From Candidatus Heimdallarchaeum aukensis (GTDB lineage Archaea; Asgardarchaeota; Heimdallarchaeia; Heimdallarchaeales; Heimdallarchaeaceae): DNA of 64,000 nucleotides. The translations under genes were made by a program, and so were the position numbers. This document shows, piece after piece, positions 5,530 through 55,791 of the stretch; the first letter of the stretch is position 1; the number at the start of each line of letters is the position of its first letter. Below the pieces are notes generated by a model that searched no databases, was not told where the DNA came from, and saw only the letters and a program-made list of their open reading frames with translations. The stretch spans positions 896,001 through 960,000 of the forward strand of contig CP084166.1 in the NCBI GenBank assembly GCA_021513695.1, read 5' to 3'.

Positions 5530-6400
5530 CTAATTATATAAATCACCTTTTTTTCCTTTGGGGATTGCTAATAAATAACCTTGTATCGTATCTCTAATGT
5601 CTGTGAAATCTCTAAATGGATTAGGATTACCTATAATTATTTCCTTATTTTCGCTTTTAAGAATCTTTGCAATCTGATTAAAAATTACTAAAGTTACAAA
5701 CATAATTTCTCTGTTTGGTCCAGTATTATTATATCCTCTTGTAACAACAATAGGCAATCCATACATACTATGATATTTAAGACTAAATTGTTCAGTAGCT
5801 ACCTTACTAGCTTCATATGGAGACTGTGGTCTAAGCGAATTGTTTTCATTAATAGGTATTTCGCCTAGAGATGGTAATCCATATTCTACACTACTCTCTG
5901 CAATCTGAATATCAATATCTAAATCTGAATTTCTTATTATTTCTAAAAGATTTACAGTACTTTCAATATTTGTACGTACAGCTTCAATAGGCCCCCAAAA
6001 TGAGAAAAGAACAAGACTGTGCTGGTAAGTGAAAGATATAACTTGGTTGGACTTCTTTGATAGTTATTTCTAATGATGAATAATCAATAAGATTAGCTTC
6101 CTTAAGTATAGTTTTATTAAGAAATTTATCAATTTTTGGATTTATTGGATTAGATTGTCTTCTTACAATACTATAAATTTCAACTTCTTGTTCCACAGAT
6201 AGTATTTTTTCTACTAAAGAGCTACCTACAAATCCTAATGTGCCAGTAATCAGAACCTTTTCTTGATGAAAACATGATTTGTCATACAGATCTCTTTTTT
6301 CTTTAGAAAATTTATTTTTATATTCATTAATATTGTCTGGATATATTAAGAATTTGCTTGTTTCTCATATATTTCTCAGTAAATTTTATCTTCAAAGAGC
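5530..6400 (-). pseudogene. Disrupted paralog of the NAD-dependent NDP-sugar 4,6-dehydratase/epimerase at 16601-17704 (one frameshift plus C-terminal truncation)
   Basis: Minus-strand translation gives KVLITGTLGFVGSSLVEKI...IVRRQSNPINP...EANLIDYSSLEITIKEVQPSYIFHLPAQS, then after a frameshift near 6000 ...SPYEASKVATEQFSLKYHSMYGLPIVVTRGYNNTGPNRE...IIGNPNPFRDFTDIRDTIQGYLLAIPKGKKGDLYN*. This is collinear with the intact protein but stops about 85 aa early. Confidence 0.7.
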
Positions 6401-6688
6401 ATAAATAAACTAACGCTTTCTTAGTTTTTAAATTTAATAGCAAGTATTTTAATTTAAACTCATTATTTTTTCAATTTTTTTTTAAAAAAATTTGAAGAAT
6501 AAAATGTAAGAATGAACAAACTTAAAATTAATAATTAAATTCTGCTTCATTAAAATGCATTATTTACTATTTAAATTGTAACTAAATACATAAATACATA
6601 TATACACATATTATTGAAAATAATAAGATAACTTTAACAAACAAATTTATTACAAAAAATAAGAAAAACTTCACATTGGGGGAAATTT

Positions 6689-7387
6689 ATGACAGAAGGA
6701 AAATACAATAATCTAGTTATATTAATTCCAACGCTAAATGAGGAAGATTCTATTGGTTATTTAGTGAACTCATGTAAAAAATTGACAGATAATGTAATTG
6801 TTGTTGATGGGTTATCAATTGATGATACAGTGGTAATCTCTAAGAAAGAAGGGGCAGAAGTGATTTATTGCAAGAAAAAGGGAAAAGGTAATGCTATTAT
6901 AGACGGTTTAAAATACGTATTGAAGAAACCAAATATTGAATATATCGCATATTTGGATGGAGATAGTACATATGACCCTTATGACATAAAAATTCTGTTA
7001 GACAAGATGTTAAATGAAAAAAAACTTGATGTAATAATTGGTAACAGATTACCAAAAAGAGAAAAAGGTTCTATAAAATTTATAAATATAATTGGCAATT
7101 ATTTATTTTCTTTTTTAATTAGTCTAATAAGTAGGGTAAAAATAAGTGATTCACAATCAGGTCTTCGTTTATTATCTAAAAAAGCAACTATGATATATTC
7201 AGATTGTCTAGAGTCTTCTGGTTTTGATATTGAAACTGAAATGATCATTAAAGGGTCGAGAAAAGGTATTAAATTTGGTGAAGTTCCTGTTAGCTATAGG
7301 TGTCGTGAAGGAAATTCTAAACTTAATCCTTTTAGAGATGGATTTAAGATTTTAAAAACGATTATAAAATATAGTTTTAAAAGATAG
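6689..7387 (+). CDS. Family 2 glycosyltransferase (dolichyl-phosphate hexosyltransferase-like)
   Basis: 232 aa; N-terminal LVILIPTLNEEDSIG...VIVVDGLSIDDT and DXD-type YLDGDSTYDP motifs typical of GT2 / DPM1-like enzymes. Confidence 0.7.
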   Translation: MTEGKYNNLVILIPTLNEEDSIGYLVNSCKKLTDNVIVVDGLSIDDTVVISKKEGAEVIYCKKKGKGNAIIDGLKYVLKKPNIEYIAYLDGDSTYDPYDIKILLDKMLNEKKLDVIIGNRLPKREKGSIKFINIIGNYLFSFLISLISRVKISDSQSGLRLLSKKATMIYSDCLESSGFDIETEMIIKGSRKGIKFGEVPVSYRCREGNSKLNPFRDGFKILKTIIKYSFKR

Positions 7388-7579
7388 AATTTATATTCAT
7401 CTTACACTAAACTATAGTAATCAGATTTCTTTATATAAAACTATTTTTAATCCTTCATTCTATAACATTATAAAATTCTCTCCACGTTGATGTTTTAAAT
7501 TTATAAATGATATTAAAAAACTCTTATGGTGCACTTCCAAGGTGTTACAAATACAGACATAGATTGTACTTGAAATAAT

Positions 7580-8309
7580 AGAGAATAAGACGCTTATGAT
7601 GATGGAAGAGAAGACGGTCACGCAACGAGATGAATACAAGTTTGATGAAAACAAAAATGTTTTCTACGGCAGATTTACAGGACACACAGAAGTGTTTTTA
7701 TTTACACAACCAGTGATAAGACTGTTAAAGACGTATTGAACGGTCTTGGAGATAACCTGTCTCATGGGTGGATTCGTGAAAGAAACGATAAAAATGAGTT
7801 AGCAAAAAAATACAAACATATTGATCCAAGATTTCTTTTTGTAAAAAAAAGATATAATTTAAGACCAACTGAAATACAAGGAGCATTTGGAATTCAACAA
7901 CTCAAGAAACTTGAAATATTCTTACGAACTAGAGAAGAAAATGCAAAATTTTGGATAGATAATTTGAACAAATATAGAAGCCTTATTCACATTCCAAAGA
8001 CTGAAACAAATATAAGACATGCATGGTTTGGATTTCCAATAGTTATTTATGAAAAAGCTGGATTTAAACATGATGATTTCATTAAAATATCTTGAAAACA
8101 ATAATATTGAAACTCGTCCAATTATGGCAGGAGATATAATTGAACACCCCGCTATGCACTATTATAACTGGAAACAAGTAAGAACACTAGAAAACTCTTC
8201 AAAGATAATAAAAAATGTTTTCTTCGTTGGAAATCATAGTAGCATTAAACAAAAAGAAAGAGAATACATTATGGATGTAATGAAATCATTTTTGGAAAAA
8301 AACACCTAA
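7580..8309 (+). pseudogene. C-terminal fragment of a DegT/DnrJ/EryC1 aminotransferase paralog (frameshifted, 5' part lost)
   Basis: ORFs 7736-8095 and 8049-8309 read HGWIRERNDKNELAKKY...YNLRPTEIQGAFGIQQLKKLEIFLRTREENAKFW...HAWFGFP and NNIETRPIMAGDIIEHPA in two frames. Both are collinear with the C-terminal third of the intact aminotransferase at 17730-18998. Weak similarity extends upstream to about 7580. Confidence 0.65.
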
Positions 8310-8344
8310 CTTTTTTTTAAATATTCATTAAAATCTTTTCTTTT

Positions 8345-9350
8345 AAAGCATGTCCAAAAATTAATTTTTATTAATGTGGGGGTTTATGTCGGAAGTATGA
8401 GTTTCTTTCAGATCATAGACCCCCACAAAGCAAGAGAATTCATAATCATTAATGAACCTTTCCTTAAGAAACTGGTGAAAGAGGAACCGAGAGAAAGTAA
8501 GAGAGGGAGAAAAAGAATAGCAGAAAGGTGGGTGATACTGGCTTTAGCGATCATTGCGAGAATAGAAGGAATTGCTTGGAGGAAGTTAGAGGAAAAGTTG
8601 TCTTTATGCGATTTTTTGATAGAAGAGGGGTGGATGAAGAAGATTCCTTCCAAATCTACTTTTCATGCAGTGTGGAGAGCGACAGAAAGTAAGTTGCTGG
8701 AGCGGTGGATAATAGATTTAGGTAGGGAAATAGTAAGGAAAAAAGGGTTGAAAGCTATGTCGGTGGATAGTTCAGGTTTTAAAATTCGTCAAGCTTCTGT
8801 TTGGCGTTTTCTCAAGTGGGCAAGAGGAGGACTAAAGAAAACCTCCAAACTTTTCTGGAAGATACACCTTATAGTTGGTTTACCCTCTCGAGCTATAGTC
8901 TCTCTTGCTCATTCTGCTAGTAACACTCACGATAGTAAAGTCTTCGGTTTACTATGGCAGAAACTTCCTTCTGCACTCTTGAGACCTTTCTTGAGATTCT
9001 ATGGAGACTGCGCTTACTGGACAGAAAATATCGTGGGACTTCTTAGCCAACATTCCTTTTTTCCTGTTATTCCTCCAAAAAGTAATGCTCGTTATCCCTC
9101 TCCTCCTCCTCTTGGACCAATAGTTCAAGCTCATCGTCTCTACCCTGGTCTCTATCGTCATAATCACCACCCCGAGTATCGTAGTAGTATTGAACATGTC
9201 TTTGGTCTCCTCAAACTCTCTCTTCCCCCGATTCTTGATCGCTTACCCTCCACCATCCTCTCTACCTTGTACAGTTCTCTTCTCTGTTACAACTACCTTT
9301 TACTCCTTCGGACTGTATAGTTGGTGAAAAAGAATTTTTGGACATGCTTT
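8345..9350 (+). mobile_element. IS element copy 1 (IS4/IS5-superfamily-like), intact, about 1006 bp, terminal inverted repeats AAAGCATGTCCAAAAATT
   Basis: Perfect 18-bp terminal inverted repeats at 8345-8362 and 9333-9350 enclose a single transposase ORF. A second, almost identical copy lies at 15464-16470. Confidence 0.8.
8376..9320 (+). CDS. DDE transposase (IS4/IS5-like)
   Basis: 314 aa; candidate catalytic residues in DSSGF, GDCAYW and YRSSIEHVFGLLK (R-x3-E-x6-K tail characteristic of IS4/IS5 transposases). Confidence 0.7.
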   Translation: MGVYVGSMSFFQIIDPHKAREFIIINEPFLKKLVKEEPRESKRGRKRIAERWVILALAIIARIEGIAWRKLEEKLSLCDFLIEEGWMKKIPSKSTFHAVWRATESKLLERWIIDLGREIVRKKGLKAMSVDSSGFKIRQASVWRFLKWARGGLKKTSKLFWKIHLIVGLPSRAIVSLAHSASNTHDSKVFGLLWQKLPSALLRPFLRFYGDCAYWTENIVGLLSQHSFFPVIPPKSNARYPSPPPLGPIVQAHRLYPGLYRHNHHPEYRSSIEHVFGLLKLSLPPILDRLPSTILSTLYSSLLCYNYLLLLRTV

Positions 9351-9397
9351 TTTAATAGAACATTAAATATTTATATCTATATATTATGTAACTATCA

Positions 9398-10543
9398 ATG
9401 AAAATAGCTATAATTAATCAATTTACCACACCAGAAGCTGGAGGGCACGAAATAAATTTAGCCAAACTATTACATAAAAAAGGACATGAACCTGTAATAA
9501 TAACTTCTGAATATAAGAATCCTAACCTAACCAATTATAAACTTATTAAGGCAGATGTGAAGAAGGATAAAGAACTCTGTTCTTTTAAAATTATAAGACT
9601 AAAAACTATATTTGCCTATTCAGAATTCCCAATTGTGACAGGAATGGATAAAATAATAGCTGAACTTAAACCAGACATTATTAATATTCATGAATTTTTT
9701 CAATACACTAGCTATAAAGGATACAAGTTAGCGAAAAAAAACAAAATACCTATTGTATTAACTCAACACTGTTATTACTTTCCACCCAGTTTTTTGAATA
9801 GATTAGGTATGAAAATTACAACTAAACTTTGGGGAAAAAAAATAATCAAGAATAGTGATGGACTTATAGCTATAGCTGAAAGCTCTAGTAAATTTCTAAA
9901 GGAAGTATCAAAAAATCCAAGATTGAAAGTAAACATAATACCAACGCCATTAGAATTGGATCAATTTCTTGAAATTATACCAGATTTTACTAAAAAATCA
10001 GAAAGTGATATTTTTAGAATATTATATGTTGGAAGAGTAGATGAGAGAAAAGGGATAAAATATTTGTTAGATGCTATGTCAATAGTAACAAAAAGATTCT
10101 ATAAACAAAAAATTGTTTTAGATATTGTTGGAAGAGGAGCAGATTTAAAGAAGTTTAAAAGATATGCAAGAGACAGAAATATTTGTGCAAAATTTCATGG
10201 ATTTGTTGAACATCAAAACATTTCAAAATTTTATAAAAAAGCTAATGTTTTTGTTTTACCCACAATTACAAAAGAACCATTCGGCAACGTAGCAGTTGAA
10301 GCTTTAGCGTCTGGGATCCCAGTTATTGCAAGCAAATTAGGAGGACTAGTAAATATTGTTCAAGAAGGTGCAGGATTTTTAGTTCAACCAAAAAATGCAG
10401 AAGAAATAGCTAATGCAATTACAAAGTTTTTAGATAATCCACTCTTATTAAAAAATTACAGTAAGAATGCAAAAGATCTTGGGTTCAGATTTGCAAATGA
10501 GCCTATAAATTCAATTATAGAGTTATTTCAGAATCTTATTTAA
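9398..10543 (+). CDS. Family 4 (GT-B) glycosyltransferase
   Basis: 381 aa; classic GT4 signature EPFGNVAVEALASGIPVIASKLGGLVNIV. Confidence 0.8.
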   Translation: MKIAIINQFTTPEAGGHEINLAKLLHKKGHEPVIITSEYKNPNLTNYKLIKADVKKDKELCSFKIIRLKTIFAYSEFPIVTGMDKIIAELKPDIINIHEFFQYTSYKGYKLAKKNKIPIVLTQHCYYFPPSFLNRLGMKITTKLWGKKIIKNSDGLIAIAESSSKFLKEVSKNPRLKVNIIPTPLELDQFLEIIPDFTKKSESDIFRILYVGRVDERKGIKYLLDAMSIVTKRFYKQKIVLDIVGRGADLKKFKRYARDRNICAKFHGFVEHQNISKFYKKANVFVLPTITKEPFGNVAVEALASGIPVIASKLGGLVNIVQEGAGFLVQPKNAEEIANAITKFLDNPLLLKNYSKNAKDLGFRFANEPINSIIELFQNLI

Positions 10544-10585
10544 ACATGTTTCTGAACTAAATATTGTTTAAGTAATCACAAAGAG

Positions 10586-11030
10586 ATGGATATAAAAATG
10601 GACATTAATAAATTCAAAAATCAAAACATCTTGATAATTAGTGAAAATGGTTTTATTGGTTCTCACCTTTTTCTAAAGCTTAGACATTTATCTAAAAATA
10701 TTATTAGAACAGTTTATTCACATAATTCAGAGAAAAATCAATTGTACAAATTTTACTATATCCATGTATTATTTGTTCAGCTGATGATTTAGAAGATGAA
10801 TATGCAATTGATGGGATTTAATAGATGTGTTTCATCTATAGGTAAATATTTAGTTTTTCCATAAACCAGACCAGATGATGAAAATACAAATTTTGAATCC
10901 TCTTGATATTTTCTAATGTTTTCCATTATATTTAAAGTTCCAAAAGTATTGACTTGATAACAAAGCTCTGGCTTTTTTATTGATTCATAAACATCAATTA
11001 AACTTGCTAGGTAATATATGATATTGAAAT
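10586..11030. pseudogene. Scrambled remnants of an NAD-dependent epimerase/dehydratase gene: N-terminal fragment on the + strand, internal fragment on the - strand
   Basis: Plus-strand ORF 10586-10792 has the Rossmann motif ILIISENGFIGSHL. The reverse complement of about 10800-11030 translates to ...CYQVNTFGTLNIMENIRKYQEDSKFVFSSSGLVYGKTKYLPIDETHLLNP, typical of the SDR epimerase core. The fragments are in opposite orientation. Confidence 0.5.
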
Positions 11031-11317
11031 TTTAAAATTATTACAATAATATCCTACAAACGATTTGGTTATACTATTAAGATATATAAGTGAAGTAGAT
11101 AAAATAAATAAAAACTACCTCACTTTTAAATCTTTATAAGTTTAGTTCTTTATAAATTTTGGTTAATCTTACTACATTTTTCTCATTATAATACTTTTTT
11201 TTATTATTTTTTTATTTATCATGAGACATTCATGAAATGTAGAGACTAGGTCTAACCTACTGTAACTCAGATCTCTTTTTTTCTTCCTCTCTTATTACAA
11301 TTTTCCCCCTTCACTAG

Positions 11318-12081
11318 GGTAGTGTCTAGTTTTTATACCACCTCCTAGGTAAAAAGGAACTAAGGGGAGGATGTCCCAAGCTCTGATGAGGACGAACGAA
11401 ATTATAATGGAGCATAAAGAGAGTAAGAAAACCAGAAAGATGAGTAGAGCCATAGACGGCACGGATAGGACAAGTGCAGTGGAGAATAGAATGAAACCAA
11501 CGATAACTCTTAAGAGTAGCATTAAAACGTTCAATATAGGAGCGTAAACCACCTTTGATAACGGAGATTTTGATACCTAGACGAAGTAAGACAGGATACC
11601 ATACCCCTGCATCTGTAACGACAATACGGGGCTTAAAACCCCAACATTTGAGCCAATAACGGAAAGTTAGTAAACATTCAAGATTACTCCGTCCTTTAGT
11701 AATACTAAAACCCAGTAAAGTCTTGTTGTAAGGATCTAACGCGAACCACAGATATATTGAGCCTTGAGAGGTCCTAATCTCTGTTTCATCTACTACTATA
11801 ATCTCTGGTATTCCCCCTCTCTCTGCTACAACTCTATGTAAACTTTCCCTAAAGAGCCTGAACTTCTTTACCCAATACCATAATGTTTGATGCGTTAAAC
11901 CATTCTTCCATGCTACTGTCCTCAACCCATTCTTTGAACCAATATATTCATAAATCGCTTTTATTATTATTTTTTTGGGGACTCTGCATCTCTTAAAAAG
12001 AGCAGATAGTTTTTGTGTTTTCATATCTTACTATTAGAGTCCCCACAAATATTTTTGTCGGAAGAAAACTAGACACTACCC
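11318..12081 (-). mobile_element. Intact IS6-family insertion sequence, 764 bp, 17-bp terminal inverted repeats GGGTAGTGTCTAGTTTT, flanked by an 8-bp target site duplication TTCACTAG
   Basis: Perfect IRs at 11318-11334 and 12065-12081. Identical 8-bp direct repeats lie immediately outside at 11310-11317 and 12082-12089; IS6 elements generate 8-bp TSDs. Confidence 0.8.
11326..12024 (-). CDS. IS6-family DDE transposase
   Basis: 232 aa; VVDETEI, IVVTDAG and ERFNATLKS with C-terminal HQSLGH motif, as in the IS26/IS240 transposase family. Confidence 0.75.
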   Translation of the reverse strand: MKTQKLSALFKRCRVPKKIIIKAIYEYIGSKNGLRTVAWKNGLTHQTLWYWVKKFRLFRESLHRVVAERGGIPEIIVVDETEIRTSQGSIYLWFALDPYNKTLLGFSITKGRSNLECLLTFRYWLKCWGFKPRIVVTDAGVWYPVLLRLGIKISVIKGGLRSYIERFNATLKSYRWFHSILHCTCPIRAVYGSTHLSGFLTLFMLHYNFVRPHQSLGHPPLSSFLPRRWYKN

Positions 12082-12467
12082 TTCACTAGCCTCCTAACCT
12101 TCTTATATTAGAGAAATAATTTATTAAAAGAAACATTTTTCTAGTACCCAAAAGTATAACCCATGTCTATCGAGTGAACAACTAGGGAAATAGTAATCAA
12201 AAATTCTTCATATATTGAATAATCTGATATTGGATATTTGAAATTAAGTCCAATTTCCGCTTACAAATTCCTCTTTTGAAGTTTTGTATATACTTCTTTA
12301 TACATGCATATTATAAAATGAAAACATAAGCTTAATTTATATTCTTCTTTTTGACATATTATTTTAATCATTATAGAGAAAAATAGAGTTTCAATTAGAA
12401 AAAATAAATTTTTATTATAGAAAAAAAATATTAACTTGTGAGTTTTATATTGCGTGAGATGATAACA

Positions 12468-13394
12468 ATGAATTCAGATTTATCACTAAAAGACAAGAAA
12501 ATTTTATTAACAGGTGGTAGTGGTTTTTTTGGAAGTTTTATTCTTGATGAATTAAATAAAGAGGAAGTTTCTGAAATTATTGTACCAAGGTCATCAAGGC
12601 ATGATTTACGTAATAGAGATGATGTACAAGATGTAATGGACGGAGTTGACATCGTAATACATGCTGCAGGAATTGTATCTGGTATTGGGGGAATTCAAGA
12701 AATACCTGCAAAAATTTTTTATGATAACGCAATAATGGGCTTGCATATAATGGAAGAAGCAAAAAATTTTGGAATTAAGAAATTAGTAAATATAGGTACT
12801 GCTTGTTCATATCCCAAATTTGCACCTATACCCTTAAAAGAGAAAGATTTATGGGCTGGATATCCTGAAGAAACCAAAGCTTCTTATGGTATCGCTAAAC
12901 GTTTACTAGTAGAAGGTGCAAGAGTTTATCATCATCAATATAATTTAAATGTTATCCCACTAATAATATTTAATCTATATGGACCTCGTGACAATTTTGA
13001 TTTAGCTACCTCTCATGTAATACCTGCTTTAATTCGAAAATGCTTAGAATCAAACAAGTTAGTGGTTTGGGGAGATGGAACTCCAACAAGAAGTTTTTTG
13101 TATGTCAAAGACGCAGCAAAAGCTGTGATATTGGCAACAAAAAAATATAATAAACATTACCCTGTAAATATAGGTACATCTGAAGAAACTAGTATTAAAA
13201 ATCTTGTAGAATTAATAGCTGAATTAACTGGTTTTAATGGTGAAATAATCTATGATAAAACAAAACCTAATGGACAACCTAGGCGATGTGCAGATGTTTC
13301 GTTAGCAAAAAAAGAATTTAATTTTGAAGCTAAATATTCATTAAAACAAGGATTAAAGGAAACAATTGATTGGTATAAAAAAAATTTTAACTGA
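12468..13394 (+). CDS. NAD-dependent epimerase/dehydratase (extended SDR; GDP-L-fucose synthase-like)
   Basis: GxxGxxG Rossmann motif ILLTGGSGFFGSFI and catalytic YGIAKRL (YxxxK); about 310 aa. Confidence 0.75.
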   Translation: MNSDLSLKDKKILLTGGSGFFGSFILDELNKEEVSEIIVPRSSRHDLRNRDDVQDVMDGVDIVIHAAGIVSGIGGIQEIPAKIFYDNAIMGLHIMEEAKNFGIKKLVNIGTACSYPKFAPIPLKEKDLWAGYPEETKASYGIAKRLLVEGARVYHHQYNLNVIPLIIFNLYGPRDNFDLATSHVIPALIRKCLESNKLVVWGDGTPTRSFLYVKDAAKAVILATKKYNKHYPVNIGTSEETSIKNLVELIAELTGFNGEIIYDKTKPNGQPRRCADVSLAKKEFNFEAKYSLKQGLKETIDWYKKNFN

Positions 13395-14202
13395 AAATTT
13401 TGACTTTTTTGTTTAATTTTAATTAATTACTGTTATATCACGATATTCATAAATAAAAGTTATTGATAACAATGTAGAAATAATTAATTATTAGAAATCT
13501 CAATTTTAATTCTTCAGTGATCCTTCTGGAGGAAGTTTTATGTTTTCAGAAAAAAAATATAAATCCATCCCTACCATAAATGATGCGTAAAATCCACGAT
13601 CATAAATCTTTCGCCATACATATGAATTATTTTTGTTTGGTGGATAATTAATAATACAGGATTTATGATTTTAGGGAGAATTAGTGGTAGCAGCATATTT
13701 ATCAATCTTTAAAATTGGCTAACATATACATTAGCATTCTGCATTGTTAGAATATAGCAAAGATAAGAACCAAGAAAAACTGAACCACCAGTTACAAAAA
13801 TACTTTGATTCTCAATTTTTATTTCTCTCTTTTTTAAATTATTGTATTTTAATCTTCATTGATGAATATAAAAATTAATTTGGTTATATATAAAAATCTA
13901 TATCAATTTTAATATGGCTTTTAGAAAATAAAATTTATTTTAGTTTTAAAACAATGAAGAGGATTATTTAAAAGAAAATTGTTAAAAGAAAAAATTAATA
14001 TTCATAAGTTCACATAAAATAGCCACAAACTATTAAGATAATGGAATAAATAGGAAACAGATATTCATATGACTATAAAAGTATATGATTTTTGTCTTTT
14101 AGAATAGAAAATACAAATTTTTTTTGTAGATGTAATTCTAAATATCCCTTTACTTTTAATAAAAACCTAATCTTTATAATAAGATTAGTAATTATTCTTC
14201 AT

Positions 14203-15333
14203 ATGGATAAAGTTATAATAATTGGTCCCTCTTCAAAATTCTTAAGTGGTATCACATATTATACAATTAATATAGCAAATTTGTTAAGAAAAGATAAAAA
14301 AATTTTTATTTTTGAAATAGATCAATTATTACCAAAATTTTTATTTCCTGGGTCAGGAAGAGTGGGTAAAATACAAACAATCTCTACTTATAAAGAAGAA
14401 GTCTCAGTTAGCCATATTAAAATGAAATATTATTCAATACCTTCAATAATTAAAGCAGCAAAGTCTATAAACATGTTAAAACCAAAGGTAGTAATCTTTC
14501 AATGGTGGTCTTGTACAGTAGCACACATTTATTATTTTTTAATAAAACTTATTTCAAAAGAGATTAAAATCATTTTTGAGTTTCATGAAATTTTAGATAC
14601 AAGCGAAGCTTCATTTTTTCTTCTAAAAATTTATACGAGTTTGATGATGAAATTGTTGTTAAAGGAAGTTACAATATTTATAACTCATTCAGTTTCCGAT
14701 AAGAAAAAAGTAATAAAAACTTATAAAATAGATGAAAGCAAAATTCAAGTTATACCTCATCTTACAACAACTACCTATTCTTTAATAAGTAAAAATATTG
14801 CTAGAAAAAAATTTAATTTACCAATGAACTCAATCGTCTTGGTATTTTTTGGATTAATTAGAAAATATAAAGGAATCAACATTTTAGTTAAAGCTTTTGA
14901 ACAATTAAAAATAAACAGCTTAAAAAAGCCATTACTTATTATTGCTGGAGAGATATGGGATCCATTAGACAAGAAAACTAACAAGATAATAAATGAAAAT
15001 AGAAATATTATTCTTATTAACAAATACTTATCAGATGAGGAGGTAGAATATTTAATCTCTGCTGCAGATTGTTTTGTATTACCATATACTAGAGCATCTC
15101 AGAGTGGAGTATTAAGTATAATACATAATACAGGCAAACCTGTAATATTATCTGACATAAAAGAATTCGTGGAAGCTTCAAAACATTATAGTAATTCTAT
15201 TTTCTTTAAGAGAAATGATATTATAGATTTAAAATCAAAAATAGAAAAATTCACTAAAAATCATAATGATTTTAATATTAAGCCAGTTAACAACAATGAA
15301 AGAGTTAAAGAATTATATCTTTCTGTAATGTAA
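14203..15333 (+). CDS. Glycosyltransferase (GT4-like, GT-B fold)
   Basis: Start taken at the internal Met (MDKVIIIGPSS). C-terminal FVLPYTRASQSGVLSIIHNTGKPVILSDIKEF resembles the GT4 donor-binding segment. Confidence 0.55.
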   Translation: MDKVIIIGPSSKFLSGITYYTINIANLLRKDKKIFIFEIDQLLPKFLFPGSGRVGKIQTISTYKEEVSVSHIKMKYYSIPSIIKAAKSINMLKPKVVIFQWWSCTVAHIYYFLIKLISKEIKIIFEFHEILDTSEASFFLLKIYTSLMMKLLLKEVTIFITHSVSDKKKVIKTYKIDESKIQVIPHLTTTTYSLISKNIARKKFNLPMNSIVLVFFGLIRKYKGINILVKAFEQLKINSLKKPLLIIAGEIWDPLDKKTNKIINENRNIILINKYLSDEEVEYLISAADCFVLPYTRASQSGVLSIIHNTGKPVILSDIKEFVEASKHYSNSIFFKRNDIIDLKSKIEKFTKNHNDFNIKPVNNNERVKELYLSVM

Positions 15334-15463
15334 TTATATATTTCTAAAAGAGGAGATAAAATCATTGTTACGCTTACAGACAAGCTATTATGAATCGAAA
15401 TTCTCAAATGAAAGTAATATTATATGTTTTTGTCTATCTTCAATTAAATATTAAATAATTAAT

Positions 15464-16470
15464 AAAGCATGTCCAAAAATTAATTTTTATTAATGTGGGG
15501 GTTTATGTCGGAAGTATGAGTTTCTTTCAGATCATAGACCCCCACAAAGCAAGAGAATTCATAATCATTAATGAACCTTTCCTTAAGAAACTGGTGAAAG
15601 AGGAACCGAGAGAAAGTAAGAGAGGGAGAAAAAGAATAGCAGAAAGGTGGGTGATACTGGCTTTAGCGATCATTGCGAGAATAGAAGGAATTGCTTGGAG
15701 GAAGTTAGAGGAAAAGTTGTCTTTATGCGATTTTTTGATAGAAGAGGGGTGGATGAAGAAGATTCCTTCCAAATCTACTTTTCATGCAGTGTGGAGAGCG
15801 ACAGAAAGTAAGTTGCTGGAGCGGTGGATAATAGATTTAGGTAGGGAAAATAGTAAGGAAAAAAGGGTTGAAAGCTATGTCGGTGGATAGTTCAGGTTTT
15901 AAAATTCGTCAAGCTTCTGTTTGGCGTTTTCTCAAGTGGGCAAGAGGAGGACTAAAGAAAACCTCCAAACTTTTCTGGAAGATACACCTTATAGTTGGTT
16001 TACCCTCTCGAGCTATAGTCTCTCTTGCTCATTCTGCTAGTAACACTCACGATAGTAAAGTCTTCGGTTTACTATGGCAGAAACTTCCTTCTGCACTCTT
16101 GAGACCTTTCTTGAGATTCTATGGAGACTGCGCTTACTGGACAGAAAATATCGTGGGACTTCTTAGCCAACATTCCTTTTTTCCTGTTATTCCTCCAAAA
16201 AGTAATGCTCGTTATCCCTCTCCTCCTCCTCTTGGACCAATAGTTCAAGCTCATCGTCTCTACCCTGGTCTCTATCGTCATAATCACCACCCCGAGTATC
16301 GTAGTAGTATTGAACATGTCTTTGGTCTCCTCAAACTCTCTCTTCCCCCGATTCTTGATCGCTTACCCTCCACCATCCTCTCTACCTTGTACAGTTCTCT
16401 TCTCTGTTACAACTACCTTTTACTCCTTCGGACTGTATAGTTGGTGAAAAAGAATTTTTGGACATGCTTT
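15464..16470 (+). mobile_element. IS element copy 2 (IS4/IS5-like), same IRs as copy 1, transposase inactivated by a 1-bp insertion
   Basis: Inverted repeats AAAGCATGTCCAAAAATT at both ends. Sequence is identical to copy 1 except an extra A in the A-run at about 15847 (GGGAAAATAG vs GGGAAATAG). Confidence 0.8.
15495..16440 (+). pseudogene. Frameshifted transposase of IS copy 2
   Basis: The transposase reading frame is split into 131-aa and 190-aa ORFs whose translations are identical to the N- and C-terminal parts of the 8376-9320 protein. Confidence 0.75.
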
Positions 16471-16600
16471 AATAATTAAATACTAAATAATAATTTAATA
16501 ATTAAATATTAAATAATAAAAAAATTTATTTTGGAATACATATTCTATTTTAATTTCTAAAAGAAAAAAATATAAAAATATTTGAATCTTTACATTAAGT

Positions 16601-17704
16601 ATGTTATCAGAAAAAGAAATTTTCCGTGAAATAAATGCTAAACATAAAAAAATTCTTATAGATCCTGAAAATTTAGATTCTTATTTGTCAAATTTTGATA
16701 AAGAAAAAAAAGATTTATTTGATCCAAAAAAACTAGAAGGTTCTAGGGTTTTAATTACCGGTATTACCGGATTTGTAGGAAGTCATTTAGCAGAGAAACT
16801 TGTAGGATTAGACTCTGATATTGATGTTTATGGTGTTGTGCGAAGACAATCTGTACCTAACTTCCCAAATATTAAACATATTGTTAATGACATAAATCTA
16901 ATAGAAGCAAATTTGATAGATTATTCTTCTTTAGAACATACTATTAATAATGTAGAACCAGACTATATTTTCCATCTAGCAGCTCAATCTTTTGTACCAA
17001 CTTCTTTTATTGCACCAATTGAGTCTGTAACAATAAACATTCAAGGAACAGTAAATTTACTTGAAATTCTTCGTAAAAGTGAAATTAATTTCAGTGGAAT
17101 TCAAGTTGCCTGCAGTAGTGAGCAATATGGACTTGTCTATCCTGATGAAGTTCCAATAAATGAGAACAATCCATTTAGACCACAATCACCTTATGCTGTT
17201 AGTAAAATAGCAACTGAAAAATATAGTTTAACTTATCATAGAGCTTATGGTTTACCAATTGTAATTACAAGAGGTTTTAATCATACAGGTCCAAGAAGAG
17301 GAATAAAGTTTGTTACTTCAGTAATCGCAAGTCAAATCGCAAATATTATTAATGGCAAAGGAAATAAGATAATAATCGGAAACCCCAAACCAATAAGAGA
17401 TTTTACATTTATTGAAGATATGATACAAGGATATATTTTATCAATAATAAAAGGAAAAAGAGGTGAGGTTTACAATCTTGGTCATGGATTTGGAATTAGT
17501 ATAGAGAATTTGATTAAACTTACTGCATCTATTTACGATGTTAGCTATGAAATTGAAATTGATAAATCAAGATATCGACCAGCAGAGGTAAACATTCTTG
17601 TATGTGATTATTCAAAAGCTAAAAAAGAACTAGGTTATTATCCACAATATTCGTTAGTTGAGACTATCAGAAAAATTGTTGAATTTTACTTAGAAAAAAC
17701 GTAA
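16601..17704 (+). CDS. NDP-sugar 4,6-dehydratase / NAD-dependent epimerase (extended SDR)
   Basis: 367 aa; VLITGITGFVGSHL Rossmann motif, SPYAVSKIATEKY catalytic YxxxK; adjacent to a DegT-family aminotransferase (dehydratase + aminotransferase = amino-deoxy-sugar pathway). Confidence 0.8.
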   Translation: MLSEKEIFREINAKHKKILIDPENLDSYLSNFDKEKKDLFDPKKLEGSRVLITGITGFVGSHLAEKLVGLDSDIDVYGVVRRQSVPNFPNIKHIVNDINLIEANLIDYSSLEHTINNVEPDYIFHLAAQSFVPTSFIAPIESVTINIQGTVNLLEILRKSEINFSGIQVACSSEQYGLVYPDEVPINENNPFRPQSPYAVSKIATEKYSLTYHRAYGLPIVITRGFNHTGPRRGIKFVTSVIASQIANIINGKGNKIIIGNPKPIRDFTFIEDMIQGYILSIIKGKRGEVYNLGHGFGISIENLIKLTASIYDVSYEIEIDKSRYRPAEVNILVCDYSKAKKELGYYPQYSLVETIRKIVEFYLEKT

Positions 17705-17729
17705 TCTTAAATTATAGGGTGATTTTATA

Positions 17730-18998
17730 ATGAAGTTAGAAACAGCATTGAATGAAATTAAGAATATTGTAGATATGTATTTCTCTGAAAATGATATTTA
17801 TAAAGATGAAACGAAGATAAGGCTTATTGCTCCTTCATATGGAACTAAAGAAGTGATAGAAGTAATAGAATCACTTCTTTCCACTAATGTAACAATGGGT
17901 AAAAAAGTTAGTGAATTTGAAAATATGTTTTCAACATACTTAAATGTGAAATATGGTACTATGGTAAATTCTGGTTCAAGTGCAAATTTAATAGCTCTTC
18001 AAATTTTATCAAATCCTGCTATTAGAAATAATATTAAACCTAAAGACGAAATTATTACTCCAGCTTTAACTTGGTCTACTACTGTTTTTCCAATGTTTGA
18101 TATTCATGCAGTTCCTGTATTTGTTGATGTGGATCCTAAAACTTTGACTATTGATGTTAACCAACTAAAAAGCGCTTTATCTAAGAAAACTAAGGCAATA
18201 ATGCCAGTTCATCTTTTAGGTCATCCATGTGATATGGACTACATAACAGAATTTGCTGAAGATAATTCATTGTACATAATTGAAGATTGTTGTGAAGCTC
18301 ATGGAGCAATGTGGAAAGGTAAGAAAGTTGGTAGTTTTGGTGATATCGGTACTTTTAGTTTCTTTTTTTCTCATCATATATCTACGATAGAGGGTGGGAT
18401 TGTTGTTACTAATAACGAAGAATATAATCTTTTATCAAAATCTTTGAGGGCCCATGGTTGGATTCGAGAGAGAAAAGATAGGTCGATTTTAGCTAAAAAA
18501 TATCCTTTTATCAGTGAAAAATATCTTTTTATAAATAAAGGATATAATTTAAGACCTACAGAACTTCAAGGCGCATTTGGAATACATCAAATTAAGAAAT
18601 TAGATGATTTCATTAAAATTAGAGAAGAAAATGCAAAATATTGGTTATCTGAACTTGATGAAATAAAGCATCTTATACAGTTACCAACCATTAAGAAAGA
18701 TGTTAAGCATTCATGGTTTGGTTTTCCCTTAATAGTTAAAGATGAAGCTCCATTTAAAAAAGATGACTTAATTCAATATCTTGAATTAAATAACATTGAA
18801 ACTCGTCCAATTATGTCAGGTAACATTACAGAACATCCAGCTTTAAAATATTTCAAATGGCGTAAGATCGGTAATTTGGAAGTATCCTCGAAAGTTATGA
18901 AGAATGGCTTTTTCTTTGGTAATCATCTAGGTATTAAAAACTACGAAAGAGAATTTATTGCGGAGAAAATTAGAGAGTTCATAGATTATAAAACTTAG
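17730..18998 (+). CDS. DegT/DnrJ/EryC1/StrS-family PLP-dependent sugar aminotransferase
   Basis: 422 aa; conserved segments SGSSANLIAL, IEDCCEAHGA, FSFFFSHHISTIEGG, YNLRPTELQGAFG typical of the family. Confidence 0.85.
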   Translation: MKLETALNEIKNIVDMYFSENDIYKDETKIRLIAPSYGTKEVIEVIESLLSTNVTMGKKVSEFENMFSTYLNVKYGTMVNSGSSANLIALQILSNPAIRNNIKPKDEIITPALTWSTTVFPMFDIHAVPVFVDVDPKTLTIDVNQLKSALSKKTKAIMPVHLLGHPCDMDYITEFAEDNSLYIIEDCCEAHGAMWKGKKVGSFGDIGTFSFFFSHHISTIEGGIVVTNNEEYNLLSKSLRAHGWIRERKDRSILAKKYPFISEKYLFINKGYNLRPTELQGAFGIHQIKKLDDFIKIREENAKYWLSELDEIKHLIQLPTIKKDVKHSWFGFPLIVKDEAPFKKDDLIQYLELNNIETRPIMSGNITEHPALKYFKWRKIGNLEVSSKVMKNGFFFGNHLGIKNYEREFIAEKIREFIDYKT

Positions 18999-19081
18999 AT
19001 ATCCTTTAAAATAAACTGTTAAATAATATAGAAATTTCCTAAAAAATACTTCTAACATTTTTTATTTTGTTTTTCTGCTAA

Positions 19082-19903
19082 TTATCTTTCTATAATTATT
19101 ATGTATCTTTTTCTTGTTCCTGCTTTGATTTCTATATAACCACACTCTTTTTTTTCACAAAACAACCTACGTAATTTCTCCAATTGGTTTTTGTTCATTA
19201 ATTGTAAAGTAATCAAATTAATTCTAACGTCATTATTATTCATTGCTTCATTCAGCAATTTAATAGCAAAATCTAACTCTCTCTCTCCAGCAATAAGTTC
19301 AGATTGTACTCCTTTCCACCCCCTTTGTTTTTCAAGTTTCGTCAAATCTGCAGGATAGATGGGTGGGTAACACATTAAAGCTGTGTATTTTCCTTCAGGT
19401 ACAATTTCTTTTATTATTTGCCCTTCTGATTTAATCAAAGTTATTAAGCTGCTTAATTTATTTTTCACTATATTTCTTTGTGCTAGTTGATAAGATATTT
19501 CATTTATTTCTGTAGCTAAAACTTTTCTCTTGTATTTTTTAGCGAGTAGCATTGCTATTGCTGCACTGGCTCCTGTCCCAATCTCGATTATAGGGTAGGA
19601 AAAGTTTGCAATTTTACTTGTGAGCAGTTCATTTATTGCTTCGACGTAAGCCATTCTTAGACTATAAGAAGGAATTAAGTGCCCTTTTGGTAGTTCAATA
19701 TCTAAATCTGCTAATTCTTTAAACAAGCACTTATTAAGTTCTGATAGAGTTTCAGGATCACCCAAATCAAATTTAGGAGGATTTTTGCTTATTAAGTATT
19801 TCTCCAATTTAGGGTATTTAGCAACTAATTTTTCGAATTTCATCCCTAAATGCTTAGCTTCTATAATTTTTAGTGGTTCTTTAATCATGCTTAGTCCTAT
19901 CAT
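19082..19903 (-). CDS. SAM-dependent methyltransferase with (N/C)PPY-type motif (RlmF/METTL16- or HemK-like N-methyltransferase)
   Basis: Motif I EIGTGASAAIAMLL, acidic motif II ATEINE, and CYPPIY resembling the (D/N/S)PP(Y/F) motif of amino-group methyltransferases. Confidence 0.5.
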   Translation of the reverse strand: MIGLSMIKEPLKIIEAKHLGMKFEKLVAKYPKLEKYLISKNPPKFDLGDPETLSELNKCLFKELADLDIELPKGHLIPSYSLRMAYVEAINELLTSKIANFSYPIIEIGTGASAAIAMLLAKKYKRKVLATEINEISYQLAQRNIVKNKLSSLITLIKSEGQIIKEIVPEGKYTALMCYPPIYPADLTKLEKQRGWKGVQSELIAGERELDFAIKLLNEAMNNNDVRINLITLQLMNKNQLEKLRRLFCEKKECGYIEIKAGTRKRYIIIIER

Positions 19904-20102
19904 TTACTAACTATATAATAATCTAGTTATATTTTGGCTAACTAATTTTTTAACAATAAAGGCTTGATAAAAATCCTCTCATTTTTCATAGTTAATATAT
20001 TGAAAATACCAAAAATGCAACAATTTTTTGAACACTAAAAAAGAGTACAAATTAATTTGAAAAAAAAATATTAATTAGAAATAAAAAGTGAAGAAAGTAA
20101 AG

Positions 20103-21059
20103 TTAAATTTTTGCTTTTGATCTAAAAGGTAATTTAGCAGAAATAGCTTTCCAATCCATGATAAAGTATTCTATTACCAAATCAATAACTAGTACAATAA
20201 TAGAAACTATACCAACCAAAGGAATAGTACTGAAAAATCCTAGAGCAAAATAAGTTGCCAGGTAGAGTAAATGAAAACTTGTAAATAAAGCAAAAGGAAG
20301 AATATTAGTTATTTTTTCGATTCTAAAATGTCCCGCAAAAATAGAGATTAGTATAACTGTTAAAGCAATAAAAACAAACAACAGAACAAGATAAAACCAA
20401 TACCAAACAACAATTATTCCTTTAGCAAGAAGAAATAGATTAAAGCGATAAGTTCCTTCAAAAGCTAAATAAAGAGGAATGTAACCCAAAAAAGGAACAA
20501 TTAAGTGATAAACAATTACAAGTAAATTTACTTTGTCTCTCCAAATTTTACGCTCTAAACGTAGTATAGAACTGAAAATTAAAACAATAAAAAACCAACC
20601 CATGTAATTAGTCCAAATAACACCAAAGTAAGTAAGAGGAGAAATATAAGTAGGCAAACCATATCCCCAATCCCAAAATCCACCATCAATTCTAATAGCA
20701 ATAGCATCCATAGTTAGATCAAGTGTTAAAGCTAACAAAGTGTCTAAAAAAGGGCGAGATATAGGATGCAAACCAAAATGGTCAGTAGTATCCATTGAAC
20801 AGGTAATAATCATTGCCCAACAAAAAGCAACAACTAATGGGACATTGTTGGGAGCACGACCAAACTGTAATAGAAAAAGAGTTGAATAGTGATAACTGTC
20901 ATATAAGAAGATACTCAGATACTCAATACTCAAACCAAATAAAGTAGCGGAAAGGAAATTCAACAAACGAGACCATCGCTTAAGAAAAATAAATCTGACT
21001 AGAAATACAAGATAAAGGACTTCAAAATAAATCTCAAAAAAATAAGTAAGCCAAACCAT
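20103..21059 (-). CDS. Integral membrane protein of unknown function
   Basis: 318 aa, 8-10 predicted TM helices; no recognisable motif. Confidence 0.4.
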   Translation of the reverse strand: MVWLTYFFEIYFEVLYLVFLVRFIFLKRWSRLLNFLSATLFGLSIEYLSIFLYDSYHYSTLFLLQFGRAPNNVPLVVAFCWAMIITCSMDTTDHFGLHPISRPFLDTLLALTLDLTMDAIAIRIDGGFWDWGYGLPTYISPLTYFGVIWTNYMGWFFIVLIFSSILRLERKIWRDKVNLLVIVYHLIVPFLGYIPLYLAFEGTYRFNLFLLAKGIIVVWYWFYLVLLFVFIALTVILISIFAGHFRIEKITNILPFALFTSFHLLYLATYFALGFFSTIPLVGIVSIIVLVIDLVIEYFIMDWKAISAKLPFRSKAKI

Positions 21060-21285
21060 TAAGTATTAAAAGAGAGTTTTTTAAAAAAACCTTTTGGGTA
21101 TAGTAAAAAATAGCAAGGGAAAACAATAATTCTAAACATGTTTATGTTATGTTTTCTTGCGTCAAAAGTAGATGGAATAACAATTAGAGTTATTGGGTAT
21201 TTAATTTATAACATATTTCCAAGATAGCTCTTGTTTGGCTAATTTAAAAAACTGTAAATCTATTTGGTGTAAATTACATAACAGC

Positions 21286-21930
21286 TTAAATTTTCTTTGA
21301 TATTGCGTAAGCAGTATATCCTCCAAATGCACTATTAACTAACAACCAAGGTAAACCAAAGTAAGCTATGCCTAGAAACGAACCAGATCCTGTTTGGGGG
21401 TTGACATAAAAAAATGTAAGAGCTACGAGTGTTAGTATAAAATTAGTTAGTCCCATAATTATTCCAGTCAATATTGTACGATTACGCAGATTTAGGTTTG
21501 AGGGAAGAAACTTAAATGAAAGATCTGCTGAAAAACCTGTTGCCAGTCCAAAAACGCACCAACCTACCACTGCCCAAGGACTTACTAAAGACTTTGTTTT
21601 TATCAACTCGTAATAATATTCTACAAAGAAACCAATTATTGCATAAGGCAAATATATTGCTGTTCCCATTCCAAACTGTCTTATTTTAAGAATAGGTAAG
21701 ATAATTATTAGTGCATTAAAATAACCTACCATATATACAAAAAACATTCCTGTTCCTTCTATCTCGCCCATTTTACCGAATCCTACTGTTGCACTTCCTG
21801 CAAAAAAGTCAAAGAAGTATGTTCCTATAGCTGTTACTGTGGATTGTAGGAATCCAAAAATGAGTATAATTTGCCATACTTTTATTTTTTCTTTTTTTTC
21901 TGGTTGTGTAATTCTATCTTTTTTTCTCAT
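21286..21930 (-). CDS. Small integral membrane protein (possible ECF-type substrate-capture or transporter subunit)
   Basis: 214 aa, 5-6 hydrophobic segments. Confidence 0.35.
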   Translation of the reverse strand: MRKKDRITQPEKKEKIKVWQIILIFGFLQSTVTAIGTYFFDFFAGSATVGFGKMGEIEGTGMFFVYMVGYFNALIIILPILKIRQFGMGTAIYLPYAIIGFFVEYYYELIKTKSLVSPWAVVGWCVFGLATGFSADLSFKFLPSNLNLRNRTILTGIIMGLTNFILTLVALTFFYVNPQTGSGSFLGIAYFGLPWLLVNSAFGGYTAYAISKKI

Positions 21931-22355
21931 TTTATCTTACTTTTTATTTTTTTTCTAATAAGTTGTTAGTTTTTAGCTTTTTCCAACTTTTTATTTTTGT
22001 ATAAATATCTTTGATTTGTTTCTTGTTGTTTTTTATAATGTGAGATTATCTTTCATCAGTTAGAATCTAGTTGTTGTTTTCACAAATGGTTTTTTTTACA
22101 ACATGGGGTTCTTTTAGTTCTTGATTGTTTCAATTTTCTTTTTTTTTAGAAAAACTTTAGTGATAATTATTACTTGAGAACTTTTGTTTCTAGTTTTTTT
22201 ATAGTTGATTTAAGCGATAACCTATTATTGATTTTACTGCATTTCCTTCTTTCTCTTTTTTCCATAATTATTCTTTGACTAGTAGAATAGTATTCTTTTT
22301 ATTCTCTAGTTTAGCTATTTTACTCAGTAAGCATCGCTTTAGGAGAAGTGTAGGA

Positions 22356-23588
22356 ATGGAAGAAAGTAAAGACTACTTTTACGACATCCAATTAGATAAA
22401 AAAAATTCTTTAAATAATCAAATGAGAGAAACTCTTCAATCCTTTATTAATTCATTTCCTTTCTATGTTATGCTTATTGACGAGGATCATCACATTCAGC
22501 TTGCTAACAACGCTATCTTAGACCAATTGAAAATGGATCCTACTGCTATTGTTGGTTGTTATTGTCCTTCCAAAATTCACGGTTTAGATTCTCCTTTTGC
22601 TGGTTGTCCTCTTGAAGCATCTAAATCTTCTCTTAAAGCTATTGAACGAGAATATTATTTTAAAGAAGAAGACAGGTGGGTTCGCTCTACTGCTTATCAT
22701 ACTAATATTTTTACTCCTGAAAACAAACGTCTTTTTATTCATCTTACTATTGACATTACTGCTCAGAAGAATGCTGAAAATAAATTGAAGCGTTCTGAGG
22801 AGAAGTATCGTCTTCTTGCTTCTAAATTACAAAAGCTTAATGATTTACATAAGAAATTGAATGAGATCCAAGAGATTTTTATTTACGAACGAGATAAGAC
22901 TTCTTTAATTCATCGTATATGTTCAAAGTTGTCAGAACTTATTAGTTATGATCTTTGTTGGATAGGTATTTTAGATTCAGGTAAGTTAAAGATTTTGGCT
23001 AGTTCTAGTTCTGATTCTGATTCTGGTTCTAGTTCAAGTTCTAGAATTAAAGACTTTTTTACTACTGAAATTGACCTTCATTCCGATGGTCGTTATTCTT
23101 GTTTACATAAGGTTATTGAGCAAAAACAATTAATTGTTATTAACAAGGATAATTTTTCTTGTTCTGATTGTCTATTCCACGACACTTCTTCACCTAATTC
23201 TATCTTAATCTTTCCTATGATTGTTAACGACAATGTTTATGGTATTATCAGTTTATATAAGTCTGAGAGTCACATCTCTGAAAACGAGATATCTATTTTA
23301 CAGACTGTTGCTAATGCTTTAGCTTTTGCTCTTCAATCTATTGAATTAATTGAAAGTCAGAATGAAGCTTTTTCTCAGCTTAAGAGAAATATTGATTATT
23401 TAGAAGATATAATCGATAAAATTAGAAATCCTCTTACTGTTATTCAAGGTTTCGTTGAACTTTATATGAAAGATAAAAGCAGTGCAGCTATCATTAAAGA
23501 ACATATTAACCAAATTGTAGAGATTCTTTCTAAAGTTGACGAAAAATATATTCGTTCTACTGACTTATTCAAACAGTATACTGAATAA
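22356..23588 (+). CDS. PAS/GAF sensor-like protein with degenerate HisKA-like C-terminus (no phospho-acceptor His, no ATPase domain)
   Basis: N-terminal PAS-like region with motif GCYCPSKIHG...FAGCPLE, Ser/Asp low-complexity linker, GAF-like middle, and C-terminal IRNPLTVIQGF resembling the HisKA box but lacking His. Paralog of 29883-31076. Confidence 0.55.
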   Translation: MEESKDYFYDIQLDKKNSLNNQMRETLQSFINSFPFYVMLIDEDHHIQLANNAILDQLKMDPTAIVGCYCPSKIHGLDSPFAGCPLEASKSSLKAIEREYYFKEEDRWVRSTAYHTNIFTPENKRLFIHLTIDITAQKNAENKLKRSEEKYRLLASKLQKLNDLHKKLNEIQEIFIYERDKTSLIHRICSKLSELISYDLCWIGILDSGKLKILASSSSDSDSGSSSSSRIKDFFTTEIDLHSDGRYSCLHKVIEQKQLIVINKDNFSCSDCLFHDTSSPNSILIFPMIVNDNVYGIISLYKSESHISENEISILQTVANALAFALQSIELIESQNEAFSQLKRNIDYLEDIIDKIRNPLTVIQGFVELYMKDKSSAAIIKEHINQIVEILSKVDEKYIRSTDLFKQYTE

Positions 23589-24068: not shown

Positions 24069-24276
24069 GTTTATGTGATTAATTTATAACATATATATTT
24101 TTTGGTTGTAATCCAAACTGTTTTGCTAATAAGATAATTAATGTTATCAGAACACATACATGTATTGTCAATTTTTATTCGTCACAAGAACTATCTTATA
24201 CTCCACATTACATTGGTGTGACGTAATACTTATATGGACAATTACCAATGGCCATCAAAACAAGGATAGTGAGATA

Positions 24277-55785: not shown

Positions 55786-55791
55786 TAATAG

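Follow-up and report, generated by a model that had tools for sequence, protein, structure and literature searches.

Two direct copies of an insertion sequence (IS) of about 1 kb lie in a glycan-biosynthesis island of the Asgard archaeon Candidatus Heimdallarchaeum aukensis, within the 64,000-nucleotide stretch of contig CP084166.1 (positions 896,001 to 960,000 of the forward strand) that was analysed here and is called the window. Both copies are very probably separate, simple and recent insertions into resident AT-rich spacers of this island. The pair reflects the ordinary behaviour of insertion sequences and is not a mobile package of genes. Copies were counted across the window and the genome of the sister species Ca. 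H. endolithica PR6 (hereafter PR6).

Pairwise alignment with flanks and repeat searches find the two copies 100% identical except for one extra A in copy 2, in agreement with an earlier interpretation made from the letters of the window alone (the sequence-only reading), which had described near-identical direct copies. Copy 1 has a run of three A residues (A3, 8728-8730) where copy 2 has four (A4, 15847-15850). The copies start 7,119 nt apart, and the spacing becomes 7,120 nt downstream of the extra A. Neither sensitive blastn nor a repeat search found a third copy or remnant of the IS in the window; a stretch of 21 nt at 12183-12203 that matches the A-run region was considered as a third, decayed copy and ruled out by the same sensitive blastn. 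The coordinates of all features are collected in Table 1.

Insertion history of the two copies

Each copy is flanked by its own 5-bp target duplication; by chance, these flanks would match over 5 bp with a probability of about 0.0045 per copy. Homology between the two insertion loci stops exactly at the IS ends in pairwise alignment. The corresponding PR6 locus (L032) has degT directly before a glycosyltransferase gene of 381 amino acids (aa) of the GT4 family, and the uninterrupted spacer between them can be aligned over the empty site reconstructed for copy 1. Removal of copy 2 together with one TAATA leaves one continuous AT-rich tandem array across the junction, as read by Tandem Repeats Finder (TRF) on the reconstructed empty site; in the window this array occupies about 15443-15464 plus 16470-16519. 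Separate target duplications, unrelated flanks, a PR6-colinear spacer at copy 1 and a continuous array at copy 2 thus argue for independent insertions. The identity of the copies in sequence suggests that both insertions are recent, and the matched duplications that each copy keeps imply that, since the insertions, crossover between the copies has not gone to fixation.

The junctions themselves are confirmed by independent data. Four Logan contigs assembled from Illumina reads only (SRR15988954) are exact substrings of the window, one running up to 8372 and the others covering 9324-11345, 12053-15491 and 16442-25486. Their ends fall 26-30 nt inside IS copy 1, an IS6-like element and IS copy 2. 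Because these contigs cross all four junctions between IS and flank, each junction is independently confirmed; the confirmation excludes the IS interior.

Segmental or assembly duplication, rather than transposition, could be proposed for identical copies only 7.1 kb apart, all the more in a region with an older pair of degT paralogues at an offset of 10.69 kb. Such an origin is extremely unlikely. A duplicated segment is at odds with homology that ends at the IS boundaries and with four distinct junctions, each confirmed in the independent Illumina assembly; the degT paralogues, for their part, are only 77-79% identical and are placed differently relative to the IS copies.

Several points weigh against independent, recent insertion. 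A 5-bp duplication in DNA this rich in A and T is modest evidence alone, and the TAATA of copy 2 is also found again in the tandem repeat around it. The copies could also be kept identical by gene conversion. Nanopore reads were used to scaffold the genome across repeats, so repeat filling and polishing could partly explain both the copy identity and the homopolymer difference. The A4 allele is without independent support, and short-read contigs carry neither the A3 nor the A4 open reading frame (ORF).

The segment AACATTAA-TATTTATAT, just upstream of the start of the 381-aa glycosyltransferase gene (GT4-381), is conserved in both species. Since this segment is downstream of copy 1, the predicted archaeal promoter of GT4-381 is likely untouched.

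Table 1. Features at and around the two IS copies. Positions are those of the window; IR, inverted repeat; SDR, short-chain dehydrogenase/reductase; GDP and NDP, guanosine and nucleoside diphosphate.
Feature	Position	Strand	Description
gmd' pseudogene	5533-6355	-	aa 17-292, frameshifted; 72-74% aa identity to PR6 gmd; inverted relative to PR6
degT' pseudogene	7730-8309	+	aa 229-418 only, frameshifted; 71-76% aa identity to PR6 degT
Target duplication of copy 1	8341-8345 / 9350-9354		TTTTA, 5 bp
IS copy 1	8346-9349	+	1,004 bp, intact; 17-bp IRs at 8346-8362 and 9333-9349
Copy 1 transposase ORF	8376-9320	+	314 aa from GTG; 307 aa from ATG 8397 (likely start)
GT4 glycosyltransferase (GT4-381)	9398-10543	+	381 aa, intact; 83% aa identity to the PR6 gene after degT
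Epimerase-314 remnant	10598-10750	+	aa 1-51, decayed; PR6-type
Epimerase-314 remnant	10810-11031	-	aa 68-141, decayed; PR6-type
IS6-like element	11316-12082	-	767 bp; perfect 18-bp IRs, AGGGTAGTGTCTAGTTTT
IS6-like transposase ORF	11326-12024		232 aa, rve-type
SDR epimerase/reductase, GDP-L-fucose-synthase-like	12438-13394	+	245 bits against a cut-off of 500
Second GT4 glycosyltransferase (GT4-376)	14203-15333	+	376 aa from ATG 14203; 77% aa identity to the PR6 GT4 before gmd
Target duplication of copy 2	15460-15464 / 16470-16474		TAATA, 5 bp
IS copy 2	15465-16469	+	1,005 bp; differs from copy 1 by A4 alone
Copy 2 5' ORF	15495/15516-15890	+	N-terminal part, without catalytic residues
Copy 2 3' ORF	15868-16440	+	DDE part
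NDP-hexose 4,6-dehydratase	16601-17704	+	Intact; starts 131 nt after copy 2
RfbH/ColD-like DegT-family 3-dehydrase	17730-18998	+	Intact

Resemblance to compound transposons

Compound transposons with one defective IS include Tn5 (IS50R/IS50L) and Tn10 (IS10R/IS10L), and Tn9 is bounded by direct copies of IS1. IS50L differs from IS50R by one nucleotide, which truncates one transposase. The window pair is like Tn5 in having a one-nucleotide difference that truncates one transposase and like Tn9 in the direct orientation of its IS copies; it differs from Tn5, Tn10 and Tn9 in that it is without a common outer duplication and that the bracketed DNA is resident chromosome.

These likenesses raise the question of whether the 8.1-kb structure arrived as a unit, as a compound transposon that brought its glycan genes along. 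The two direct copies do enclose 6,115 bp of cargo-like genes, and, as in Tn5 and Tn10, one transposase is intact and the other defective. The arrangement stops there: neither a shared outer duplication nor foreign cargo is found. The outer flanks differ, TTTTA on the left and TAATA on the right, each IS having its own duplication. The order of degT' and GT4-381 across copy 1, and of GT4-376 and gmd across copy 2, is colinear with the PR6 chromosome, while the interior holds decayed remnants of a resident operon. Arrival as a unit is therefore highly improbable. The sequence-only reading had called the structure composite-transposon-like, a description that fits the topology and fails on the separate duplications, the differing outer flanks and the PR6-colinear DNA. 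Because the DNA beside each IS keeps the order that it has on the chromosome of the sister species, the pair is, on this comparison, composite-transposon-like in topology only and was formed in place.

A bolder proposal would see the pair as a nascent Tn5-like element or recombination switch, with the extra A real and the IS belonging to an unnamed, Heimdallarchaeia-restricted clade of the IS4/IS5 superfamily whose target duplications are unusually variable (5-9 bp). This combination is unlikely. Under it, copy 2 would make only the N-terminal DNA-binding part, which could inhibit transposition, and copy 1, being intact, could carry the 8.1-kb glycan cassette as a whole from one Heimdallarchaeum genome to another. 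Alternatively, the direct repeats could delete or re-duplicate the cassette, producing population-level variation in surface glycans.

Recombination potential of the pair

Two separately inserted copies may still recombine. Two 1-kb direct copies 6.1 kb apart are suited to homologous recombination, and deletion or unequal exchange between them is plausible because the same IS family appears to have made an inversion of ~272 kb in PR6. In that genome, two copies on CP084167.1 (L021 at about 2.29 Mb and L022 at about 2.01 Mb) are identical, inverted and about 272 kb apart. Their 6-bp duplications are reciprocally swapped, TAATTT lying to the left of one and to the right of the other and ATTATA conversely, which indicates the footprint of an inversion by recombination between the two IS copies.

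In the window, a crossover between the copies would remove 7,119-7,120 bp, taking with it both GT4 genes, the Fcl-like epimerase and the IS6-like element; the dehydratase/3-dehydrase pair would remain. If direct repeats delete the bracketed genes in this way, they would give a relative of the eukaryotic ancestor an uncomplicated means of varying its surface glycans. The sequence-only reading went further and had the pair probably driving glycan-structure variation, which is better put as something that it may do. Neither a deletion nor a duplication variant of the bracketed segment was seen, in short contigs that could not have revealed one. Logan look-ups placed each of four flanking genes in one sample only, SRR15988954, on one contig each, and no alternative context or empty-site variant of these genes appeared in that single sample. 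One scan of a metagenome collection for the GT4 beside copy 1 found no close relative, with matches of at most 43% identity.

The element and its family

A reference-genome scan, which returned PR6 but not H. aukensis itself, found 28 copies of the IS in PR6, with 89-96.5% DNA identity to the window element, and these fix the ends of the element. Its length is 1,004 bp, and its terminal inverted repeat (IR) is a perfect 17 bp, AAGCATGTCCAAAAATT. The sequence-only reading had given 18 bp; the additional base, outermost at each end, varies among the PR6 copies (A/T/C/G) and is therefore flanking DNA, which appears paired in the window only since each target duplication has T as its first base and A as its last. 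Its candidate duplications need the same correction, as TTAATAA and TTTTAA/TTTTTAA each contain one IS base and one extra flanking base. A 7-bp duplication was rejected, because the PR6 copies set the IS ends one base further in and leave the 5-bp TTTTA and TAATA.

The element has the general attributes of an IS, namely inverted repeats, copies at unrelated loci and target duplications. Duplications of 5-9 bp flank 24 of the 28 PR6 copies as well as both window copies; by length, the PR6 set divides into 5 bp (n=3), 6 bp (n=13), 7 bp (n=2), 8 bp (n=5), 9 bp (n=1) and none (n=4). Among the PR6 copies, 12 pairs show no difference at all, and two copies differ by a median of 8 nt. Divergence this low is the picture of a recently active IS family.

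The transposase of copy 1 is 97-98% identical in amino acids to transposases of Ca. H. endolithica. More distant relatives (38-63% identity) are mostly single ORFs of ~303-317 aa, and all named relatives come from Heimdallarchaeia except one 78-aa cluster member labelled Helarchaeota. Like transposases of the IS4/IS5 superfamily, the protein matches Pfam PF01609 (DDE_Tnp_1), scoring 41 bits over residues 127-280 where the cut-off is 23; this was the only Pfam match, and no Harbinger-type domain was found by Pfam. The catalytic triad consists of D131 (DSSGF), D211 (DCAYW) and E273 within YRSSIEHVFGLLK, followed by Y-R-x3-E-x6-K, and these residues, with the short D-to-E spacing, correspond to the IS5 signature. 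D131 and D211 are invariant in the aligned relatives, and the E is kept in the eight relatives that reach it (P0051 is truncated there). The best NCBIfam match, transpos_IS5_2, scores 67 bits, below its curated cut-off of 140, with IS1182, IS5_3, IS5_4 and IS4_1 lower. These matches place the element in the IS4/IS5 superfamily as IS5-like, short of curated IS5 membership.

With the IS5 family (the IS5, IS903 and ISH1 groups) the element shares a length of ~1 kb, a single DDE ORF of ~310 aa, short inverted repeats and a target duplication. It differs in falling below the equivalog cut-off and in a target duplication that varies between 5 and 9 bp, whereas IS5 groups usually give a fixed length. 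A range of 5-9 bp within one IS5-like family, with 6 bp commonest, would to our knowledge be unusual.

Transposases of these genomes have been surveyed before. In the part of its text consulted, the study that described the two circular Heimdallarchaeum genomes gives 11 transposase/integrase families, 7 of them amplified to up to 27 copies per genome, and the amplified families overlap non-tandem repeats (Wu et al., 2022; PMC8813620). The 28-copy IS of PR6 is probably the largest of those families. In the same part of that text, no element boundaries, inverted repeats, duplication lengths, IS pair or glycan-locus comparison were found (PMC8813620). A 2026 survey of archaeal IS elements counts 81 'eukaryotic-like transposons' in PR6, the consulted portion of its text being without per-family detail (PMC13343696). 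Literature searches found no published description of the IS pair or of the glycan locus.

The case matters little beyond the Heimdallarchaeum lineage. For work on Asgard archaea, it offers a base-level description of what is probably the most abundant Heimdallarchaeum IS, covering its ends, inverted repeats, 5-9-bp duplications and the signs of recent activity and of IS-mediated inversion.

The extra A in copy 2

The extra A splits the second transposase into two ORFs, as the sequence-only reading had stated. The frame is lost after codon 118, and the N-terminal part is thereby separated from the whole catalytic domain. The 5' ORF is residue for residue the protein UJG41580.1 of Ca. H. aukensis, deposited in GenBank as 'hypothetical protein K9W45_03725'; what this entry describes is thus the 5' half of a transposase broken by a frameshift, which polishing may have introduced in error. 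A3 is present in 23 of 23 PR6 copies with a readable motif, and the ORF is intact in all 22 full-length (1,004-bp) copies. Together with the mostly single ORFs of distant relatives, these copies indicate that the single-ORF A3 state is ancestral and A4 the derived, ORF-breaking state.

Whether the extra A exists in the cell is a separate matter, on which the evidence leans towards a real base. An assembly or polishing artefact, with both copies identical and intact, is a substantial possibility. The H. aukensis assembly joined SPAdes contigs of Illumina reads by Nanopore scaffolding (LRScaf) and was polished with Pilon (PMC8813620), and the earlier warning about homopolymer errors was apt for a hybrid assembly of this kind. 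The 1-kb repeat is longer than both reads and k-mers, and since short-read contigs break at the IS ends, the IS interiors were filled in or copied. The sole difference between the copies is a homopolymer length, 382 nt from the nearest unique flank, and the A4 ORF is on no short-read contig.

This last point is uninformative, because the A3 ORF is equally missing from those contigs: among the short-read assembly contigs there was no exact-protein match to the copy 1 transposase, from its 307-aa or its 314-aa start, or to the 5' ORF of copy 2. A4, moreover, survived Pilon polishing at 346x coverage (PMC8813620). The PR6 assembly, by the same authors and fully Nanopore-based, has zero indels relative to the window IS in its 22 full-length copies, so that residual homopolymer errors in the IS appear rare. 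Genuinely defective copies are also common in this IS family.

Alternatively, copy 2 might be designed to function as two ORFs, joined, as in IS1 and IS3, by programmed frameshifting or by slippage of transcription at the A-run. In both, the frameshift window lies between the N-terminal part and the DDE domain, and the split in copy 2 falls between the same two parts, at an A-run. Every intact relative, however, is a single ORF with A3, unlike the IS1/IS3 type. Restoring the frame from A4 requires a +1 shift on GAA-AAT, which is not a slippery motif known to us, and four A's are too short for efficient transcriptional slippage. A designed frameshift is very unlikely.

If the extra A is real, neither product of copy 2 should work as a transposase, because the first is without all three catalytic residues and the second without the N-terminal part. 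The sequence-only reading had called this copy inactivated. That is too strong: the ends of copy 2 are perfect, so it would be non-autonomous rather than dead, and it could still be mobilised in trans by the transposase of copy 1 or of other copies.

Another frameshifted sub-lineage of the IS has evidently spread. Six degenerate PR6 copies (L023, L024, L026-L029) have in common a 4-5-nt insertion at IS position 499, in the variants CCAAA, CCCAA and CTAAA, which splits the transposase into about 160 + 169 aa. They occupy different loci and, L028 excepted, each is flanked by a target duplication of its own. Proteins P0054, P0049, P0059 and P0057 represent this sub-lineage, and the same split is found in H. 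aukensis and in a third Heimdallarchaeaceae metagenome-assembled genome. Either these copies were mobilised in trans by intact ones, or the intact lineage was derived by losing the small duplication.

The glycan locus and its older remodelling

The gene labels of the sequence-only reading (a GT4, an IS6 element, an epimerase and another glycosyltransferase) hold for the segment between the copies. Copy 1 lies between degT', which ends 36 nt before it, and GT4-381, which starts 48 nt after it. In PR6 the gene order is GT2 (-), GT4-376, IS debris, gmd, degT, GT4-381 and epimerase-314. In the window, the left part reads inverted gmd', GT2 (+), degT', copy 1, GT4-381 and the fragments of epimerase-314, one of them inverted; the right part continues with a scrap of rve-type IS, the IS6-like element, the fucose-synthase-like epimerase, GT4-376, copy 2 and the dehydratase/3-dehydrase pair. 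The fucose-synthase-like epimerase is without an orthologue in the PR6 locus.

The intact dehydratase/3-dehydrase pair is 64% identical in amino acids to the PR6 pair, against 71-76% for the dead remnants; overall, the decayed gmd-degT-epimerase remnants are 71-81% identical to PR6. An ancestral, PR6-like deoxy-sugar cassette would thus have decayed and been functionally replaced by a divergent one. The set of a 4,6-dehydratase, a 3-dehydrase dependent on pyridoxal phosphate and an Fcl-like reductase suggests a 3,6-dideoxyhexose pathway, with all matches below the equivalog cut-offs.

The breakpoints of this remodelling are at about 6355-6700, 7387-7730, 10750-10810 and 11031-11316, none of them at copy 1. 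The spacer that holds copy 2 is the point where identity to PR6 falls from 81% to 69%; because copy 2 has its own duplication and the array is continuous across the empty site, that junction appears to predate the IS. The remodelling is, by these comparisons, much older and larger than the two insertions, and the IS copies are later arrivals rather than rearrangement junctions. The island serves as a worked example of change by cassette replacement and decay, with IS elements as later passengers.

Bacterial O-antigen and capsule loci offer a parallel. The window island is like them in its several IS types, its decayed cassette remnants and its divergent intact replacement; it differs in its Asgard archaeal host and in an IS pair that arrived later.

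The PR6 counterpart of the island is likewise rich in IS elements. A few kb upstream of the PR6 glycan locus there is a degenerate copy of the IS that forms the window pair (L029, CP084167.1 988004-994921). The PR6 spacer between GT4 and gmd, the one that holds copy 2 in the window, is filled by debris of an IS with helix-turn-helix and rve domains (L032 7875-8825).

Other features of the window

The best family match of the IS6-like element between the two copies is IS6, at 49 bits against a cut-off of 125. Its target duplication is ambiguous and reads as 5, 7 or 9 bp. The genome has multiple copies of this element, as short-read contigs break 30 nt inside both of its ends. Next to it, at 11228-11290, is the scrap of rve-type IS named above, which is older.

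Two large CRISPR arrays, at 42342-48400 and 60972-64000, have the same 29-nt repeat, ATTTTCACACTACTTAGTTCAGCTTAAAC, in opposite orientation; the first has roughly 90 repeats and the second runs off the end of the window. Between them lies a type I-B-like cas operon (52023-60591) with Cas6, Cas8b/TM1802, Cas7, Cas5, Cas3, Cas4 and Cas1, and leader-like inverted repeats of 142 nt are found at 48385-48526 and 60866-61007. This locus is probably one of the CRISPR-Cas loci C1-C7 of the genome paper (PMC8813620). The first array contains a perfect duplication of at least 300 bp (43709-44008 and 44372-44671, offset 663 bp), in which about ten repeat-spacer units appear twice, as either a real duplication or an assembly artefact.

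At 25666-27126, a 486-aa ORF has a Cas12f1-like TNB domain of the TnpB type. Over its last 156 aa it is 87% identical to a TnpB fragment of 157 aa that adjoins the PR6 glycan locus.

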